This document shows, in pieces, positions 20,987-27,230 of a stretch of 40,397 bases of DNA (position 1 is its first letter; every line of letters begins with the position of its first letter). The DNA is from a virus. Its lineage: Duplodnaviria; Heunggongvirae; Uroviricota; Caudoviricetes. The notes under the pieces are model-generated. The model saw nothing but the letters and a program-made list of their open reading frames with translations, was not told where the DNA came from and did not search any database. The position numbers and the translations under genes were made by a program. The stretch is from IMG/VR virus record IMGVR_UViG_2541047757_000012; one strand, written 5' to 3'.

Positions 20987-21328
20987 TTACTCCTTATGGG
21001 CACCGAACTTGTTACCGATGACCCTCATTGCCGCACCACGAATAGCATCAACACCAATCAGCCCCACCCCACCACCAATGGCAACAGAAAGTGATTTAGG
21101 CCATCCGACATACTCAAGCGCGGATGCAAAGGTCAGCGTCAGAGCACCACAAAGCAGAATCTCAAGCGTTTTTCGTTTCCAGCCGCCGCCACCGCCAAAA
21201 TAGGCAATGCGCAAACCAGCCATAATAATTGACATAACCACTGCACCCAGCGGCGTATCTCCACGCCACCAACTTTGTAAGAGTTCCAGTAAGTCAGGCC
21301 AGGAATGAGGGGCATTGTGCATTTTCAT
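20987..21328 (-). CDS. Holin with lambda-like dual start
   Basis: ATG-AAA-ATG (MKM) at 21328-21320 preceded by GAGGTGAGG; hydrophobic helices; immediately upstream of the endolysin. Confidence 0.65.
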   Translation of the reverse strand: MKMHNAPHSWPDLLELLQSWWRGDTPLGAVVMSIIMAGLRIAYFGGGGGWKRKTLEILLCGALTLTFASALEYVGWPKSLSVAIGGGVGLIGVDAIRGAAMRVIGNKFGAHKE

Positions 21329-21424
21329 AAGCCTCACCTCCGAGAGTTCGGATGGTGCTAAGTGTAAGATTCAGGCTCTCAGGCTTGCTAACAAGAAGTC
21401 GAGGATGTTTCCGGAGCCTAACAA

Positions 21425-21451
21425 CGAAAAAGCCCCGGGACATGCCGGGGC
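21425..21451 (-). terminator. Intrinsic terminator-like hairpin upstream of the holin
   Basis: Minus-strand stem GCCCCGG/CCGGGGC (21432-21451) followed by T5; lies between the moron gene and the holin start. Confidence 0.5.
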
Positions 21452-21545
21452 CAGATGGAGTGCCAGATTAAGCTTCTGGCGGTATATACTCGTGTTTGAT
21501 ATCGTTAAATCGCCAAAAGTAACAATTCAAACAAAGAGGAGTTTT

Positions 21546-21707
21546 ATGTCTGAAAAAAACAAGCCACAAGGTGAAAATAAACCTCAGCAACCCGTGGCAC
21601 CAAAACCAACTCCAACACAAAGTACTGCAGACTTTGCTACACGTCGTGTTTTTGTTGGAGATTCTGCCGACTCAGTCATTGAACATATAAAAAAACAGCC
21701 GAGATAA
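21546..21707 (+). CDS. Hypothetical small protein, 53 aa
   Basis: ATG at 21546 preceded by AAAGAGGAG at 5-nt spacing; Pro/Gln-rich N-terminus; 3' end overlaps the convergent minus-strand gene by 32 nt. Confidence 0.4.
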   Translation: MSEKNKPQGENKPQQPVAPKPTPTQSTADFATRRVFVGDSADSVIEHIKKQPR

Positions 21708-22245
21708 ACATCGCCGCTACCGGAGCAAGGATGGTATACATCCTTGCTTTATCGAGACTCGTGCGGATTTTCTCATTTTCCAACAGTAACTCTCTTGCTG
21801 TATCACTCAAGTCAACAAGGCGATACCTTCGTATAAGCGGCAATAACTTATCAGGTCCTAAATATCCTGCATCAGCGAATATTTTAAAGCTCGAGGGCTC
21901 CATATCCTTATATTTTTCATGATATAGATGATCAGGAGGGGCATTGATCAGGCCCCTAACCTTCACAGATAAACCAGTACATACCAAGTAAATGGCGCAC
22001 CATGTCCATAGTAATGTAAATGTGGTAATTCCGGCGGTGAGAAAATCGAAATTAGTTTTCTGTGTCAGCAATAAAAAAGATGAGCCAATTCCAACAATCT
22101 GAATGTTCAGAAGTTTGTATCCATTCTCAACATTGGTTTTGTTAGAAAGATGAATCTCTCGTATCGTCTCTTCCCCTTGTTTTTCAAGATAATCGACGAG
22201 CTCATCATCTACTCCTAAAAAATAAACTTTAGGTAGTTCTCTCAT
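21676..22245 (-). CDS. Hypothetical membrane protein (moron between late terminator and lysis genes)
   Basis: ATG at 22245 with GGAGGTGAG upstream; 189 aa with soluble N-terminus, central hydrophobic helices and a C-terminal TM; region is AT-rich. Confidence 0.6.
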   Translation of the reverse strand: MRELPKVYFLGVDDELVDYLEKQGEETIREIHLSNKTNVENGYKLLNIQIVGIGSSFLLLTQKTNFDFLTAGITTFTLLWTWCAIYLVCTGLSVKVRGLINAPPDHLYHEKYKDMEPSSFKIFADAGYLGPDKLLPLIRRYRLVDLSDTARELLLENEKIRTSLDKARMYTILAPVAAMFISAVFLYVQ

Positions 22246-22349
22246 CTCACCTCCACATCCTGTACTGAACACAATTTTACCAGAATGTCTCGATTCTAGG
22301 TATTCCGCCAGGAATCGCGCTCCAGAAATGAAACATCAGGTTCGCCAGT

Positions 22350-22383
22350 ACCAAAAACAACAAAACCCGCACAATGGCGGGTT
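22350..22383 (-). terminator. Candidate tR'-like terminator downstream of Q
   Basis: Minus-strand stem AACCCGC/GCGGGTT (22364-22383) followed by a T-rich tract, about 85 nt downstream of the Q stop. Confidence 0.45.
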
Positions 22384-22441
22384 CTGGTAAAGTTCATGCG
22401 CTTGGTTCGCCTCGCGATACAGCTTTGCGAAGCATACCGGA

Positions 22442-22470
22442 ATTGAAGCAGTTTATGCGTAAAAAATCAA
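22442..22470 (-). promoter_or_regulatory. Candidate late promoter (pR'-like)
   Basis: Minus-strand TTGATT (-35, 22470-22465), 17-nt spacer, TTCAAT (-10, 22447-22442); overlaps the Q stop; followed by the hairpin at 22350-22383. The -10 is weak. Confidence 0.3.
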
Positions 22471-23009
22471 GCTATTTTTTGAGCAAATGATTCTCGCATG
22501 GGAATATATAGGGCATACTCAGCAACAGCCAACCAATTAGCAATTCGCTTTTCGCATGTGCTAAAACACCACTCAGGATGTGCATCATTTAGCAATTCAG
22601 CCATTTTGCGCTTAGTCATCCCCCGTCCTTCATACCGTTGCCGGAGGACACTAATCAATCCAGGATGCTCTGCCAGCACCTCACTTATGACTCTATCAAT
22701 ACATAACGCCTCTGCATCAGTACAATGCGCCAGCCAGGTCTTTTGCTTGCCATTGATCATCTCTCGCAAAAACGCTTCCAGCTCAGGTTTCTCTATTCCC
22801 GCTTTTTTCATCCTGCGCAGGGCTTCATTGACGGCTGCTTTCGTCAATTTTTTGGATGCCAGCAACTGGTTGAACATATTCCCCGTCTTACCGCCGCCAA
22901 TATACGACCAGCGCCCCCACATACGCAGTTTCCCCTGAATCCAGACACTTTCCAGCGTTGCGAGACGAAGGTGCTCTCCGTTTTTTCCTGTATTCGTTGG
23001 ATAAATCAT
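22467..23009 (-). CDS. Antitermination protein Q-like
   Basis: ATG at 23009 (MIYPTNTG...) overlapping the upstream stop; motif LESVWIQGKLRMWGRWS; positioned immediately upstream of a promoter/terminator unit and the lysis cassette. Confidence 0.55.
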   Translation of the reverse strand: MIYPTNTGKNGEHLRLATLESVWIQGKLRMWGRWSYIGGGKTGNMFNQLLASKKLTKAAVNEALRRMKKAGIEKPELEAFLREMINGKQKTWLAHCTDAEALCIDRVISEVLAEHPGLISVLRQRYEGRGMTKRKMAELLNDAHPEWCFSTCEKRIANWLAVAEYALYIPMRESFAQKIA

Positions 23010-23895: not shown

Positions 23896-23966
23896 CGTAG
23901 TTCTCCGCTGGCGCAGTAGAATGGGTGTTCAGCCCGTTATGTAGTATAACAGAATTAATGCCAATA

Positions 23967-24218
23967 CTAACAGGATGCTCTGACTCGCAATTCATCCAGC
24001 AGTTTATCATTTCCCATAATGTCACTTACCCTCATCGGTAAAAAAATTGCCTTTCGACCATTACGATACATCATTGATTTTGGGATTTCAGGGAAGTAAT
24101 CCATTTCGACTATAACTGACAGGTCATCACGACGTATGACTGCGTATTTGCTACTAAATAGTTTCTTTATTTTTTCCACGATGCCTCCAGGTTTATAAGT
24201 ACAAAAGGTTATATCCAC
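23967..24218 (-). CDS. Hypothetical small protein (GTG start, AT-rich island)
   Basis: 83-aa ORF starting with GTG at 24218 and no clear SD; region 24180-24330 is very AT-rich. Confidence 0.3.
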   Translation of the reverse strand: MDITFCTYKPGGIVEKIKKLFSSKYAVIRRDDLSVIVEMDYFPEIPKSMMYRNGRKAIFLPMRVSDIMGNDKLLDELRVRASC

Positions 24219-24360
24219 ATAGAGACAAAAATATTAATCTGAAAAATATTTATTTCACGCCGTATATTTGATTATTTAATGTGCAGGTACAATGACTTTT
24301 ATTTTGTGTTGTGTATATAATCAAATATATGGTTATTTTTCACCCTGCGTATTCAGCGCG

Positions 24361-24386
24361 CAACAAAAAACCCGCCGAAACGGGTT
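24361..24386 (-). terminator. hok mRNA terminator-like hairpin
   Basis: Minus-strand stem AACCCG/CGGGTT followed by T-rich tract, about 70 nt downstream of the hok stop; second hairpin at 24426-24447 in the 3' UTR. Confidence 0.4.
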
Positions 24387-24454
24387 AAGCGCGGGTGCGT
24401 TGAGGATGCCTGACTCATCAGAGGTGGCGAGGGATTTCTCCCTCGCCTGGTCTC

Positions 24455-24610
24455 TTACTCCTCAGGTTCGTAAGCTGTGAAGACAGCGACCTCCGTCTGG
24501 CCGGTTCGGATTCGTACCTCGCAGAGGTCTTTCCTCGTTACCAGTGCCGTCACTATGACGGTTAAACAGATGACGATCAGGGCGACTAACATCGCCTTTT
24601 GCTGCTTCAT
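24455..24610 (-). CDS. hok: Hok/Gef-family type I toxin
   Basis: 51 aa MKQQKAMLVALIVICLTVIVTALVTRKDLCEVRIRTGQTEVAVFTAYEPEE, near-identical to HokD/RelF as I recall it; SD AAGGAGAAG before the ATG at 24610. Confidence 0.8.
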   Translation of the reverse strand: MKQQKAMLVALIVICLTVIVTALVTRKDLCEVRIRTGQTEVAVFTAYEPEE

Positions 24611-24760
24611 AGCCTGCTTCTCCTTGCCTTTCGGCACGTAAGAGGCTAACCTAGATTTGCCGTTCATAGATTGAGCCTCAGATTAATGTTAAGCGTCTTG
24701 CCGGACGCGTAATGTTAACTGGGGCTTTTCTCTGTCTGCCTTACAGTGGCATGCCTGAGG
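24611..24760. promoter_or_regulatory. hok leader region, expected site of Sok-like antisense RNA and mok overlap
   Basis: Inverted repeat TCTGTCTGCC...GGCAGACAG at 24730-24770; in hok/sok loci the antisense RNA is encoded opposite the leader. Exact boundaries not determinable by eye. Confidence 0.35.
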
Positions 24761-24948
24761 CAGACAGCCTCAAGCACCCGCAGCAATCTTACCGACACCG
24801 ATAAGAAAACGCTATTTTTTATTGCCAGCACCTTCTATCCAGGCTAATTTATCTGCGTCAGAACGGCGCAATGCGCTCGCCTGAGATACGTTTACTTGCC
24901 ATGGTAACAACAGGTAACGGCAATTGTTGTTTCTGTTTTGTTTCCTTC

Positions 24949-24979
24949 AAAAACCCCGGACCATCAATCCGGGGTTTTT
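24949..24979. terminator. Bidirectional intrinsic terminator
   Basis: A5, stem CCCCGGA (24954-24960) / TCCGGGG (24968-24974), T5. Confidence 0.55.
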
Positions 24980-24984
24980 GTTTG

Positions 24985-25068
24985 TTAACCCCAACGGCAA
25001 ATCGAATACACCACCAGCGCCACCGCCATCACCATTCCTACCGTTGCGAATGCTTCAGGCCAAGTCAT
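24985..25068 (-). CDS. Hypothetical 27-aa hydrophobic peptide (absent from ORF track)
   Basis: ATGA start/stop overlap with upstream gene at 25065-25068; GGAGG 9 nt upstream; translation MTWPEAFATVGMVMAVALVVYSICRWG; terminator immediately downstream. Confidence 0.4.
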   Translation of the reverse strand: MTWPEAFATVGMVMAVALVVYSICRWG

Positions 25069-25889
25069 CGTAAAATATCCTCCACACCTACCAACCCGTT
25101 CTGCTTCAGATATTCCATCGCCTTATCAGGCAAGCTGCTTAAACTATTGGCGTACTTTAAGGAGTGAGCCAGACGCTTAACCCACATTGTTAATTCGCTA
25201 ACCTGGTTACCTGGCACTGGCGACGCTACTGTCTGTTCCAGAACGTCATCAGGTACTACCGGCTCTACTGCCAACTGACTGGCATATTTGTTAATGGTAA
25301 CGATAAGCTCTTGCTCGGCCTCATCCAGACAATCACCAACACCTCGCCTGTCACCGTCAAAATCATCGAAATCGGCACGAATCCTGGCAACCTCCCGGAT
25401 TGCGGACAACACTTCACCAGGAATTAGCGGAGAGTTGGTTGACGTTTCCGAAATTTCCCGAAAATTATTGGTTGACGAATCCTTGTTTTCCCGAAAGTTT
25501 CCTGACTGAAGCATGGCTTCGCGGCAATCGTTCCATCCTTCAGCATAATCACTATACGCAAGAGGCCAACCTCTTATGTATTCACGCGGCAACTTATCAG
25601 GCACTACCAGCGCTGGCGATGATGCATAAAGTGGTGTTATTTTTGCCCGAAAATCACCTACTTTATGCAGTCGCACCCACCGTTCGACTTCTGCTTTGTC
25701 AGAATACATAGCGGTGAACGTATTATATTCATGGTCAATTTGCGTGAAGGTTGCCTTCCACGCCACCGGCTCTGCTGCCAGTGAGGCCAGTGCAATCTGC
25801 GCCAGTTCCATTTGTTCGCCACGGGCAAGCCCGTTTTCAAGCGGATTTTTAATGAACAATTCAATACGTTCTTTGGTAATAGTGGTCAT
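25065..25889 (-). CDS. Hypothetical phage protein
   Basis: 274-aa ORF; contains an imperfect 33-bp tandem duplication at 25437-25502. Confidence 0.55.
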   Translation of the reverse strand: MTTITKERIELFIKNPLENGLARGEQMELAQIALASLAAEPVAWKATFTQIDHEYNTFTAMYSDKAEVERWVRLHKVGDFRAKITPLYASSPALVVPDKLPREYIRGWPLAYSDYAEGWNDCREAMLQSGNFRENKDSSTNNFREISETSTNSPLIPGEVLSAIREVARIRADFDDFDGDRRGVGDCLDEAEQELIVTINKYASQLAVEPVVPDDVLEQTVASPVPGNQVSELTMWVKRLAHSLKYANSLSSLPDKAMEYLKQNGLVGVEDILR

Positions 25890-25899
25890 GTGTTAATCC

Positions 25900-26163
25900 T
25901 TATCCTGCTGTGCTTTCAACTGATGAGGGGAATAAAATCTTTTCATCAAATCCGGCATTCATATCATGGACAGCAACACACCAATCCATTGACGAACGAT
26001 TATCAAGAGCCTCCATGATTTCATCCATGCGGCGTAGGTCATACAGGTAAATGCTTTTATCGCCAATGGTGTAAAAACCAATTTTTTTCGGTGACGGGCA
26101 GCGATCAAGAACGTTCTGTAATTCGCTCAACCATGCCTGTTCCTTTTTTGTCAAAGTTGCCAT
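25900..26163 (-). CDS. Hypothetical phage protein
   Basis: 87-aa ORF; start preceded by the conserved junction motif carrying an AAGGAGAG SD. Confidence 0.55.
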   Translation of the reverse strand: MATLTKKEQAWLSELQNVLDRCPSPKKIGFYTIGDKSIYLYDLRRMDEIMEALDNRSSMDWCVAVHDMNAGFDEKILFPSSVESTAG

Positions 26164-26164
26164 A

Positions 26165-26656
26165 TCACTCTCCTTTGATGCGAATGCCAGTGGTACTCAT
26201 TCTCCTGATTTCCCAGAGCACACGAGGAACACCACCGTTTCCGACCGGATCGCGTTTACTCCGCAAGGCGACGCTTGATTCCGCCCAGCTTTTTCTTGGA
26301 GGAAGCTCTTTCACACGAACAAAACCAGCTGCGCGAAGAGATGCTCCTGATTCATCTGCCTGGGTGTACGTAATACAACGTTGATAACCCATAGCTTTTG
26401 CTGCTCGCCAGACAGCACCATAAAGCGCGCTGTTAGCGTTGCGTTCTCCTGTGGTACATGTGCGATTTACTTCAAGCGTTAATCCATCGTCCAAATGTCG
26501 TGCAACAGGTCGACCAGCTGTCGCCACACCTATCAATTCTCCGGCATCATTTATCAGACCAATGCTGAATTTATGCCCAACAGGTGGTTTATTGTGTCGG
26601 TGATGTCTGGATATAAACGCCTTCGCAACACGAAGAGTAACCGGTGAAATTTGCAT
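26165..26656 (-). CDS. Hypothetical phage protein
   Basis: ATG at 26656 (MQISPVTLRV...) preceded by the junction motif; C-terminus ...GIRIKGE encoded by the next motif copy. Confidence 0.55.
   Translation of the reverse strand: MQISPVTLRVAKAFISRHHRHNKPPVGHKFSIGLINDAGELIGVATAGRPVARHLDDGLTLEVNRTCTTGERNANSALYGAVWRAAKAMGYQRCITYTQADESGASLRAAGFVRVKELPPRKSWAESSVALRSKRDPVGNGGVPRVLWEIRRMSTTGIRIKGE
26168..26186. repeat. Conserved gene-junction motif CTCTCCTTTGATGCGAATG, copy 1
   Basis: Identical 19-mer also at 26662-26680 and 27592-27610; on the minus strand it encodes IRIKGE-stop of the upstream gene and supplies AAGGAGAG as SD for the downstream gene. Confidence 0.8.
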
Positions 26657-26658
26657 TC

Positions 26659-27135
26659 TCACTCTCCTTTGATGCGAATGTTTACAGCCTGACAAGCCTC
26701 TTCGAGAACCCAGTCAACAGCGTCTTTCCATGCTCCGGTTTCGACTGGCGGATTTTCACGCTTAACCTGTTCATAGAAGCGCACCGCTTTAACCAGTCCT
26801 TCCGGCGCTGGCTGCCCTGTCTGCGCCCTGACCCACGCCACTCGTGCCGGATTCATATGGCACATGTTGTGCCCTCTTTCTTCATGGTAATGCTCTTTAC
26901 CCTCGTTAAACGGCAACGCCTCATTCAGCCCGGCACTTCTGAAATCAGCGTGTAATTGCTCCAGCGCTGCCTCACAGGGGGTACCAATTAATGTGAGATA
27001 ATCGAAAAGATTGGCGCATAAACCATAATTTTGAGAAAACACTCCGCCGGGTTTTGCCCCGTTCTTCAGCCACAAATCATAAGCAATATAAAACCCGTAA
27101 AGCTGTTGCCTGATATTTTCTTTGATTTCTTGCAT
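26659..27135 (-). CDS. Hypothetical phage protein
   Basis: 158-aa ORF; C-terminus ...NIRIKGE encoded by the junction motif. Confidence 0.55.
   Translation of the reverse strand: MQEIKENIRQQLYGFYIAYDLWLKNGAKPGGVFSQNYGLCANLFDYLTLIGTPCEAALEQLHADFRSAGLNEALPFNEGKEHYHEERGHNMCHMNPARVAWVRAQTGQPAPEGLVKAVRFYEQVKRENPPVETGAWKDAVDWVLEEACQAVNIRIKGE
26662..26680. repeat. Conserved gene-junction motif, copy 2
   Basis: Same 19-mer; precedes the ATG at 26656. Confidence 0.8.
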
Positions 27136-27230
27136 TATTTGTTACCGCCCTTTCGGGCGGCCTCCTGATGTTCTGAGGGTGCAGAAATCCCTCCGGTTAA
27201 GGATCGAATTTTTAACAGTGCTAAATTTAA

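Follow-up and report, generated by a model that had tools for sequence, protein, structure and literature searches.

In a stretch of DNA of 40,397 nucleotides (IMG/VR virus record IMGVR_UViG_2541047757_000012; hereafter the window), we analyzed a two-gene cassette situated between the gene for a Q-like late antiterminator and the holin gene. The cassette comprises a gene for a predicted membrane protein of 189 amino acids (aa) and, converging on it from the opposite strand, a gene for a hydrophilic protein of 53 aa whose 3' end overlaps that of its neighbor; these are referred to below as the large gene and the small gene. Comparative sequence data indicated that the small gene is a real gene and the obligate partner of the large gene, and that the cassette is an autonomous, horizontally mobile two-gene accessory unit. 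On this basis we propose, with a probability of about 0.42, that the pair may constitute a toxin–antitoxin-like membrane effector module for phage exclusion or abortive infection.

Organization of the cassette

The window corresponded to a Rac-like lambdoid prophage of Escherichia coli in which the late genes occupy the minus strand, arranged in the late-strand order Q-like gene, hairpin (22386-22361), 189-aa gene, hairpin (21452-21431), lambda-family holin, GH104 endolysin, and Rz gene. The cassette occupied approximately 0.93 kb (about 21431-22360), directly downstream of the late terminator tR'. As defined by its open reading frame (ORF), homologous clusters, alignment, AlphaFold2 (AF2) model, and hydropathy, the large gene (21676..22245, minus strand) extended from an ATG at 22245 to a stop codon at 21676-21678 and was preceded by the Shine–Dalgarno (SD) sequence GGAGGTGA at 22254-22247. 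The small gene (21546..21707, plus strand), defined by its ORF, conservation, substitution ratios, alignment, and AF2 model, encodes a basic protein rich in Pro, Lys, Gln, and Ser; an SD sequence, GAGGAG, was found at 21536-21541, 4 nt 5' of its ATG, and the 3' overlap with the large gene covered 32 nt (21676-21707). The GC content was 39.1% in the large gene and 41.5% in the cassette, as against 48.9% in the whole window. Both genes are annotated in RefSeq, as WP_001208722.1 (large) and WP_071779784.1 (small), the start of the latter being placed 54 nt further upstream. Rfam and tRNA scans of the cassette gave no matches.

A first-pass annotation, made from the letters of the window, had described an AT-rich 189-aa gene between the late terminator and the holin, with hydrophobic helices in its product, together with a 53-aa plus-strand ORF having a strong SD sequence and a 32-nt overlap. 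The ORF coordinates, the base composition, the two terminators, and the hydropathy segments and AF2 helices described below agreed with this description. A second terminator upstream of the holin was likewise present as annotated, except that the terminator scan placed it at 21452-21431 rather than at 21425-21451.

Conservation and coding capacity of the small gene

Eighty viral contigs carrying the large gene were collected, from which 42 distinct large proteins, and hence cassettes, were obtained; they spanned several genera of Enterobacterales. All 42 contained an intact convergent ORF of 47-68 aa overlapping the 3' end of the large gene by 20-35 nt, and the large gene was never found intact without its small partner. 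Among ten divergent cassettes, the pairwise ratio of nonsynonymous to synonymous substitution rates (dN/dS) of the small ORF was 0.07-0.54 with synonymous sites near saturation, and its indels were all in frame. The deduced proteins shared the consensus MS..KPQ..KP.P..DF...R..VGDSA...K, in which K, P, Q, and S accounted for 46% of the residues. The N-terminal low-complexity half evolved fast; the motif DF...R..VGDSA lies outside the overlap, and its conservation is thus not a mere shadow of that of the large gene.

The small protein belonged to phrog_14506 (unknown function) and had no match in Pfam, NCBIfam, or PADLOC. A longer ORF of 71 aa is given by both RefSeq and phrog_14506. The homologues, however, start at the internal ATG, that codon is preceded in the window by a strong SD sequence, and the putative -10 element of the gene falls inside the extension; the 53-aa assignment is therefore the better one. 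In the AF2 model, built from the single sequence (predicted local distance difference test score, pLDDT, 69), the N-terminal 26 residues were unstructured and were followed by two short helices.

Disrupted large genes accompanied by an intact small gene were also encountered, including a frameshifted copy in Leclercia. In E. coli KFu019 (locus positions 1273-2435), the large gene was interrupted near its terminus by an IS3 insertion at the 3' end, which removed the last transmembrane (TM) helix and parted the two genes, leaving the small gene intact. Some clinical E. coli isolates (e.g., strain 98202) carried a 1-nt deletion within the 32-nt overlap (window position 21696) that altered both C termini, lengthening the small protein by about 27 aa and changing the last residues of the large protein.

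Promoter-like elements and an RNA hairpin inside the large gene

The conserved -10-like (extended -10) sequence TGGTAAAAT (22274..22282, minus strand), located 28 nt upstream of the ATG, was predicted to be the promoter of the large gene. The corresponding shared sequence, TAAAAT or a variant fitting TA[AGT][AG]AT, occurred 18-35 nt (mostly 28-35 nt) before the large ATG in 35 of 40 distinct and otherwise unalignable upstream regions, and in most of those 35 a terminator hairpin lay upstream of it. The stretch predicted to serve the small gene as promoter and leader (21497..21523, plus strand) consisted of an extended -10 element, TGATATCGT (21497-21505), and a conserved 5' untranslated region, TAAATCGCCAAAAGTAAC (21506-21523); 29 of 35 distinct sequences had TGnTAyyGT at a distance of 37-44 nt before the small ATG. 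Between this promoter and T2, the terminator that closes the cassette on the late strand, there was a hairpin or palindrome of conserved position, GCCAGA-N7-TCTGGC (H1; 21462..21480, no strand assigned). At the H1 position, two Trabulsiella loci had other self-complementary sequences, GCCGCC..GGCGGC and GCCGC..GCGGC.

Downstream of the small gene, a 10-bp stem-loop (21723..21749, plus strand) began 16 nt past the stop codon, within the large-gene codons for A-R-M-Y-T-I-L-A. In an alignment of 32 distinct sequences, 96.3% of the cells were paired, in comparison with 42-53% when the 3' partners were slid by 1-3 columns, and compensatory changes were present at four pairs. Read on the small-gene strand, the stem-loop contained 34 G-U pairs, as opposed to 2 on the other strand (96% versus 86% paired); the structure is therefore selected in the small-gene RNA. 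The codon for Arg168 of the large protein was AGG or AGA in 42/42 cassettes, whereas five other conserved Arg columns used AGR in 36-62% of the same sequences. AGG and AGA are rare arginine codons in E. coli genes, and the hairpin fixes Arg168 to them. The pair clearly illustrates the constraint that an RNA hairpin of the opposite strand places on a coding sequence, with one arginine locked to two codons.

From these elements, a plus-strand RNA of approximately 240 nt was predicted to run from about 21512 to about 21750 and to end in the stem-loop, roughly 45 nt inside the large gene. The predicted minus-strand mRNA would extend from the large gene's own promoter to T2 at 21431, beyond the small-gene promoter. 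With T2 closing the late strand, the large-gene transcript would run antisense through the whole small gene, and on this predicted map complementarity between the two RNAs would extend over about 250 nt.

Predicted structure of the large protein

The large protein belonged to phrog_11870 (unknown function), with no match in Pfam, NCBIfam, or PADLOC. Among 5.8 billion proteins searched there were 104 homologous clusters with identities down to about 42%, the intact members being of about 189 aa and all being labeled hypothetical. All but one of the organism-named homologues came from Enterobacterales, namely Klebsiella, Citrobacter, Serratia, Pantoea, Yersinia, Proteus, Morganella, Providencia, and Sodalis, and 24 residues were invariant in the core-family alignment.

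Hydropathy analysis marked residues 71-100 and 167-189 as strongly hydrophobic and residues 45-62 as moderately so. The AF2 model (pLDDT 83) contained three long helices, of which the first (14-62) was cytoplasmic and continued into TM1, the second (68-92) formed TM2, and the third (134-188) ended in TM3, with a loop containing short helices at 93-133. In the predicted topology, an acidic cytoplasmic N-terminal helix is thus followed by TM1 (approximately 45-62) and TM2 (approximately 68-92), and TM3 lies at the end of helix 134-188. The large gene was accordingly predicted to encode an inner-membrane protein having two to three TM helices and a small cytoplasmic helical domain. Fold searches with the model returned only generic helical bundles, and sequence and profile searches of the PDB (core-family and broad profiles) gave nothing meaningful. 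A search of the available literature library retrieved no paper on either protein or their PHROGs, nor on these genes in this slot.

Remote relatives and conservation of the pairing

When the core-family profile was run against 1.84 billion representative proteins, 104 sequences were recovered at E ≤ 1e-3. Full-length members of this superfamily were mostly 160-200 aa long and had the same helix layout. In the broad-profile search of the 5.8 billion proteins, no member carried a relevant Pfam domain, the sole domain-bearing match being a fusion with a phage capsid protein.

Nine remote members, at approximately 20-35% identity, were examined in their genomic contexts. Three of them (P0129, P0157, and P0139) lay beside a CI-type repressor gene in the immunity region, P0115 was flanked by the tail chaperone gene T and by the tape-measure gene, and P0174 was upstream of HNH endonuclease and terminase genes, near BrnTA and HicB. 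P0185 adjoined HigBA on a plasmid-like contig and P0147 adjoined a restriction-like gene; P0165 and P0127 were on short contigs whose context was too small to place them. A PemK module was also found among the neighbors of remote relatives. In 9/9 of these loci, a convergent small ORF overlapped the 3' end of the membrane-protein gene, and in 8/9 its product was basic and rich in Pro, Lys, and Gln, as in the proteins beginning with MSNKKEKSPPPPPPPPPQK and MPPSEKQPPTIPQPQP. Since all nine relatives keep the pairing while occupying other slots, the pairing is ancestral to the superfamily and independent of the Q-holin slot.

The cassette as optional cargo

Of 5426 complete E. coli genomes, 223 (approximately 4%) contained the entire 908-bp interior of the cassette, as against 1748 genomes with matches to the stretch that comprises the Q gene's 3' part and the downstream flank. 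Neither gene belongs to a curated family despite this frequency. Judging from the organism names in the sources, the cassette is also present in prophages of Klebsiella, Citrobacter, Serratia, Yersinia, Pantoea, Proteus, and others.

In the window, the upstream border of the slot is the Q-like gene (22467..23009, minus strand; RefSeq coordinates of the coding sequence), whose product matched DUF1133 in Pfam with an E value of 2e-107 and PF06530 (Phage_antitermQ) weakly (E = 5e-6). It is followed by the tR'-like intrinsic terminator (22361..22386, minus strand). The downstream border is the lambda-family holin gene S (20987..21337, minus strand; Phage_holin_3_1, E = 2e-27), ahead of which T2 (21431..21452, minus strand) was identified, like tR', by a terminator scan. 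A hairpin with a T run equivalent to T2 was found at the same position in 7/9 aligned cassettes; a stricter scan that disallowed G-T pairs detected it in 13/38, which is an under-count beside the alignment.

In the prophages lacking the cassette, homology ended at query positions 105-117 (mostly 117, which equals window position 22362 at the foot of tR') or upstream, at 156-163. The replacement cargo consisted of tRNA-Ile/Arg/Arg together with TerB, DUF3927, and SASA esterase genes, which is the typical arrangement of Shiga toxin (Stx) phages, of four tRNAs with a TolA-like gene, or of a TolA-like gene broken by IS5. In Serratia, Pantoea, Citrobacter, further E. coli, and one Actinobacillus phage record, the core-family gene was always located between a late antiterminator gene and lysis genes. 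The antiterminators represented three unrelated families (PF06530, PF03589, and DUF1133), and the holins differed as well. The occurrence of the same pair behind unrelated Q families and with different holins thus indicates that the cassette moves between phages as a unit. The Actinobacillus record (PP818812.1, 'Actinobacillus phage vB_Apl-pPE4') shared the Q tail, tR', and the hok gene with E. coli prophages and carried a cassette copy of 52% identity; its stated Pasteurellaceae host is surprising for a late region of the enterobacterial type.

A moron, in the concept of Hendrix and Juhala, is an additional gene that lies between two conserved phage genes and brings its own promoter and terminator. 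The first-pass annotation had interpreted the large gene in this way, and the interpretation was upheld by the AT-rich composition deviating from that of the window, the bracketing terminators, the conserved -10-like element, the patchy presence at one and the same position in 223/5426 genomes, and the other cargo in the slot of relatives. The circumstance that it had named as speaking otherwise, namely a lysis accessory gene present in all relatives, was not what we found, given the same genome counts and the different cargo elsewhere. Its hint at antisense or paired regulation was strongly borne out by the universal conservation of the small gene, the purifying selection acting on it, and the 3' hairpin inside the large gene. 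As the Q-holin slot is known to carry Shiga toxin and other host-changing cargo, its uncharacterized occupants are worth knowing.

A portable promoter and leader module

The stretch 21425-21530, which includes T2, H1, the extended -10 element, and the leader, constitutes a portable module. The exact 19-mer TGATATCGTTAAATCGCCA was present in 84 IMG/VR viral contigs; in roughly 50 of these the ORF that it drives is the proline-rich small one, in about 28 it drives one of five unrelated cargo genes, and for the remaining contigs the automatic choice of the first ATG gave no usable ORF. One of these other cargo genes encodes a protein of 92-94 aa beginning with MASFTVRVELVG and has a convergent partner of its own, of 61-76 aa. 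The product of another has 67 aa and contains two CxxC pairs, and the remaining three products measure 145-148, 163-165, and 170 aa. Where the flank was inspected, a late-strand terminator lay just upstream of the module, which means that the cargo genes point against the late operon. A search with this portable antisense module would aid the discovery of more cargo genes that lysogens express against the late operon.

In E. coli PK8241, the same Q-holin slot contained a different convergent pair. A 92-aa gene (locus positions 2594-2872, plus strand) was placed under the same promoter module (2470-2600), and its partner, a 76-aa gene on the late strand (2858-3088, minus strand), overlapped it by 15 nt; a gene for an ORF6N-domain protein adjoined the pair. 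Neither protein of this pair had a relative in the PDB by sequence.

A proposed restrained membrane effector

How the pair might act as the proposed effector module can be outlined as follows. The membrane protein would be a harmful, membrane-perturbing effector, which the small gene would restrain in the lysogen by antisense pairing and convergent transcription, and the small protein would probably serve in addition as an antitoxin-like binder of the effector's cytoplasmic domain. Q-modified polymerase entering from the upstream side would pass both terminators and run into small-gene transcription, and strong late-strand (or early lytic) transcription through the cassette would shift the balance towards the membrane protein. 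If an infecting phage shut down host expression, the labile partner would be lost and the effector would prevail; once freed, it would depolarize or permeabilize the cell, resulting in abortive infection or exclusion.

We infer a harmful effector because the large gene was never intact without its partner, because relatives adjoin toxin-antitoxin and immunity-region genes, because disrupted large genes coexist with an intact small gene (the IS3 insertion and the Leclercia frameshift), and because a few distant relatives weakly resemble membrane-disrupting effectors of antiphage signaling systems, as described below. The neighborhoods of the remote relatives are slots used by prophage defense and toxin-antitoxin genes, and were counted in favor of the proposal. 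So were the optional presence of the cassette in a variable slot, the coding signature of the small ORF, the RNA-level constraint on its strand, and the conserved -10 elements of both genes.

Several points nevertheless weigh against it. Toxicity, a role in defense, and the transcript ends were all inferred, and the query protein matched no defense or toxin model. Universal co-occurrence would fit any obligate two-component function and not only a toxin-antitoxin relationship. A generic promoter scan of the window reported neither -10 element; both assignments depend on conserved -10-like motifs. The U tract following the stem of the small RNA was weak (2-6 T in the next 9 nt), for which reason the structure is termed here a terminator-like or stabilizing 3' stem-loop. 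Finally, some of the regulatory features may be a property of the shared slot module rather than of this pair.

A broader claim, which we advance with considerable reserve and consider rather improbable, is that the pair exemplifies a new and widespread class of prophage two-component systems. In such a class, a three-helix membrane effector would be combined with a convergent dual-function gene, whose RNA would pair with the effector mRNA over its 3' part and whose product would be a proline-rich, disordered, antitoxin-like peptide. The arrangement is kept at approximately 20% identity and in at least four prophage slots, and the partner would be expressed from the portable promoter and 5' untranslated region marked by the 19-mer, reused for at least six unrelated cargo genes against the late operon. 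Should the membrane protein act in exclusion or as a toxin under restraint, prophage defense would gain from this pair a new effector-regulator architecture, its regulator being composed of an antisense RNA and a proline-rich peptide.

Alternative explanations

The alternative that survived best, although we regard it as unlikely, is that the membrane protein is a non-toxic superinfection-exclusion protein that blocks the entry of phage DNA in the manner of HK97 gp15, P22 SieA, or T4 Imm, the small gene merely tuning its level. A predicted inner-membrane protein would suit this role, as would a prophage moron that has terminators and a promoter-like element to itself, the location of other relatives beside CI, and that of P0115 between gene T and the tape-measure gene, an interval that on the HK97 map is the slot of the gp15 moron. 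On the other hand, tblastn searches of 50,697 phage records with the query and P0115 found no match in HK97 or in a characterized exclusion gene, no exclusion family of Pfam was matched, and an elaborate, universally conserved antisense partner would be unusual among the known exclusion proteins. The homology to HK97 gp15 that had been suspected from the position of P0115 was dropped upon this tblastn result.

The position of the large gene directly upstream of the holin gene, kept in all core-family loci, its orientation with the late operon, and the expectation that it would be transcribed by Q-modified polymerase are what might be expected if the pair were a lysis accessory, that is, an antiholin, a pinholin-like protein, or a lysis inhibitor that tunes holin timing and is kept off in the lysogen by the small antisense gene. 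This possibility seems quite improbable, however, as most prophages that have this Q or this holin lack the cassette, as it combines with several unrelated holin families, as the remote relatives reside in the immunity region, a tail operon, and a plasmid-like context away from lysis genes, and as no holin or antiholin family was matched.

Similarly slim chances were assigned to an orphan effector gated by cyclic nucleotides, related to PycTM of Pycsar, an antiphage system that uses a pyrimidine cyclase, or to the 2TM effectors of the cyclic-oligonucleotide-based antiphage signaling system (CBASS) and either triggered by host cyclic nucleotides or acting as a decoy. PycTM is thought to kill through membrane disruption (PMC11224242). 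The PADLOC PycTM model PDLC02364 matched the remote relative P0129 over residues 17-182 and the full length of the model (E = 1.5e-8) and, weakly but colinearly, P0127, P0187, and P0204 (E = 0.011-0.046), while the CBASS 2TM model PDLC00700 matched P0129 (E = 4e-5) and P0193 (E = 0.0022); the proteins are also of similar size (about 160-190 aa) and helix layout. The query itself, in contrast, matched no PycTM or 2TM model, and no cyclase was found in any examined neighborhood of the family. Against Pfam PycTM (PF18967), P0129 scored only 16.1 bits (E = 0.016), below the cut-off of 27.2 bits, and its score may be partly compositional given its richness in I, L, N, and K. It should be mentioned that the precomputed Pfam table lists PF18967 for P0129 without marking it as weak and that our own hmmscan fell below the gathering score, so that the two sources disagree.

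It appears very unlikely that the pair is a lysogenic-conversion or fitness factor, providing envelope or stress tolerance in the manner of Bor or Lom and being unrelated to phage conflict. The slot does carry Stx and other host-directed cargo, and the product is a membrane protein matching no defense model; nonetheless, it has no signal peptide or lipobox, hydropathy places it mostly on the cytoplasmic side, and the predicted tight antisense control and the neighboring toxin-antitoxin modules argue for a harmful product. Lastly, the view that the 53-aa ORF is an untranslated by-product of an antisense RNA acting purely as non-coding RNA could draw on the RNA-level hairpin, the long sense/antisense overlap, and the fast evolution of the N-terminal half, and it was largely excluded by the 42/42 intact ORFs, the low dN/dS at near-saturated synonymous sites, the motif conserved outside the overlap, and the strong SD sequence in the window.

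Other loci of the prophage

A Hok/Gef-type type I toxin gene was found at 24455-24667 (minus strand), approximately 1.3 kb upstream of Q, and is annotated as hokD in RefSeq relatives. If the proposed reading of the cassette were true, the prophage would carry a second antisense-controlled membrane toxin besides this hok gene. Just before hok, a further AT-rich patch (23950-24400; GC content approximately 35%) contained an 83-aa minus-strand ORF (23967-24218) as a candidate moron. The region between the replication genes and hok (24700-27200) included an XF1762-family gene, a DUF551 gene, and hypothetical genes, and the 3.3-kb stretch 23900-27200 was matched over at least 80% of its length in only 7 E. 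coli genomes. At the position of 24700-27200, related prophages had a pair of genes for a 'beta family protein' and a 'sce7726 family protein' instead, which makes this a second variable cargo slot.

Comparison with known systems

The pair bears a resemblance to type I toxin-antitoxin systems with membrane toxins, such as txpA/RatA and bsrG/SR4 of Bacillus prophages and the enterobacterial hok/sok. Like those with convergent, 3'-overlapping transcripts, it has a membrane-protein gene facing a short predicted transcript of the opposite strand, which would overlap its 3' end and finish in the conserved stem-loop, and a prophage location. Type I toxins are, however, typically shorter than 60 aa, whereas the putative toxin has 189 aa and three helices, and their antitoxins are non-coding, whereas the predicted antisense transcript described here carries an ORF under purifying selection. 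As these two differences concern defining features, toxin size and a non-coding antitoxin, the pair was not assigned to type I. Nor was it assigned to type II, since the genes converge instead of forming an operon and the small protein has no domain match and is mostly unstructured in the AF2 model.

Lambda RexB, SieB of lambda and P22, and HK97 gp15 are prophage membrane proteins of exclusion or abortive infection. The large protein is comparable with them as a small inner-membrane protein encoded in an accessory slot of a temperate phage, including, in the case of the remote relatives, the immunity region beside cI; it differs in that no sequence similarity to SieB, Rex, or HK97 gp15 was found and in that its partner gene is of another kind. 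The likeness to PycTM was retained as a resemblance only, membership having been rejected because the query was unmatched, its best relative P0129 stayed under the Pfam threshold, and no gene for the pyrimidine cyclase PycC was adjacent in the neighborhoods examined. Pycsar and CBASS systems employ a nucleotide-signaling partner, the place of which is taken here by the small antisense gene.

Finally, the cassette agrees with the morons of lambdoid phages, including the cargo of the Q-S slot in Stx phages, in its AT-richness, its terminators, its -10-like element, and its presence or absence among relatives, in which this slot holds stx, tRNAs, or nanS-p. Those morons are single genes, whereas the cassette described here is a two-gene unit with a convergent, overlapping partner, and it differs from them further in traveling between phages of different Q and holin types.

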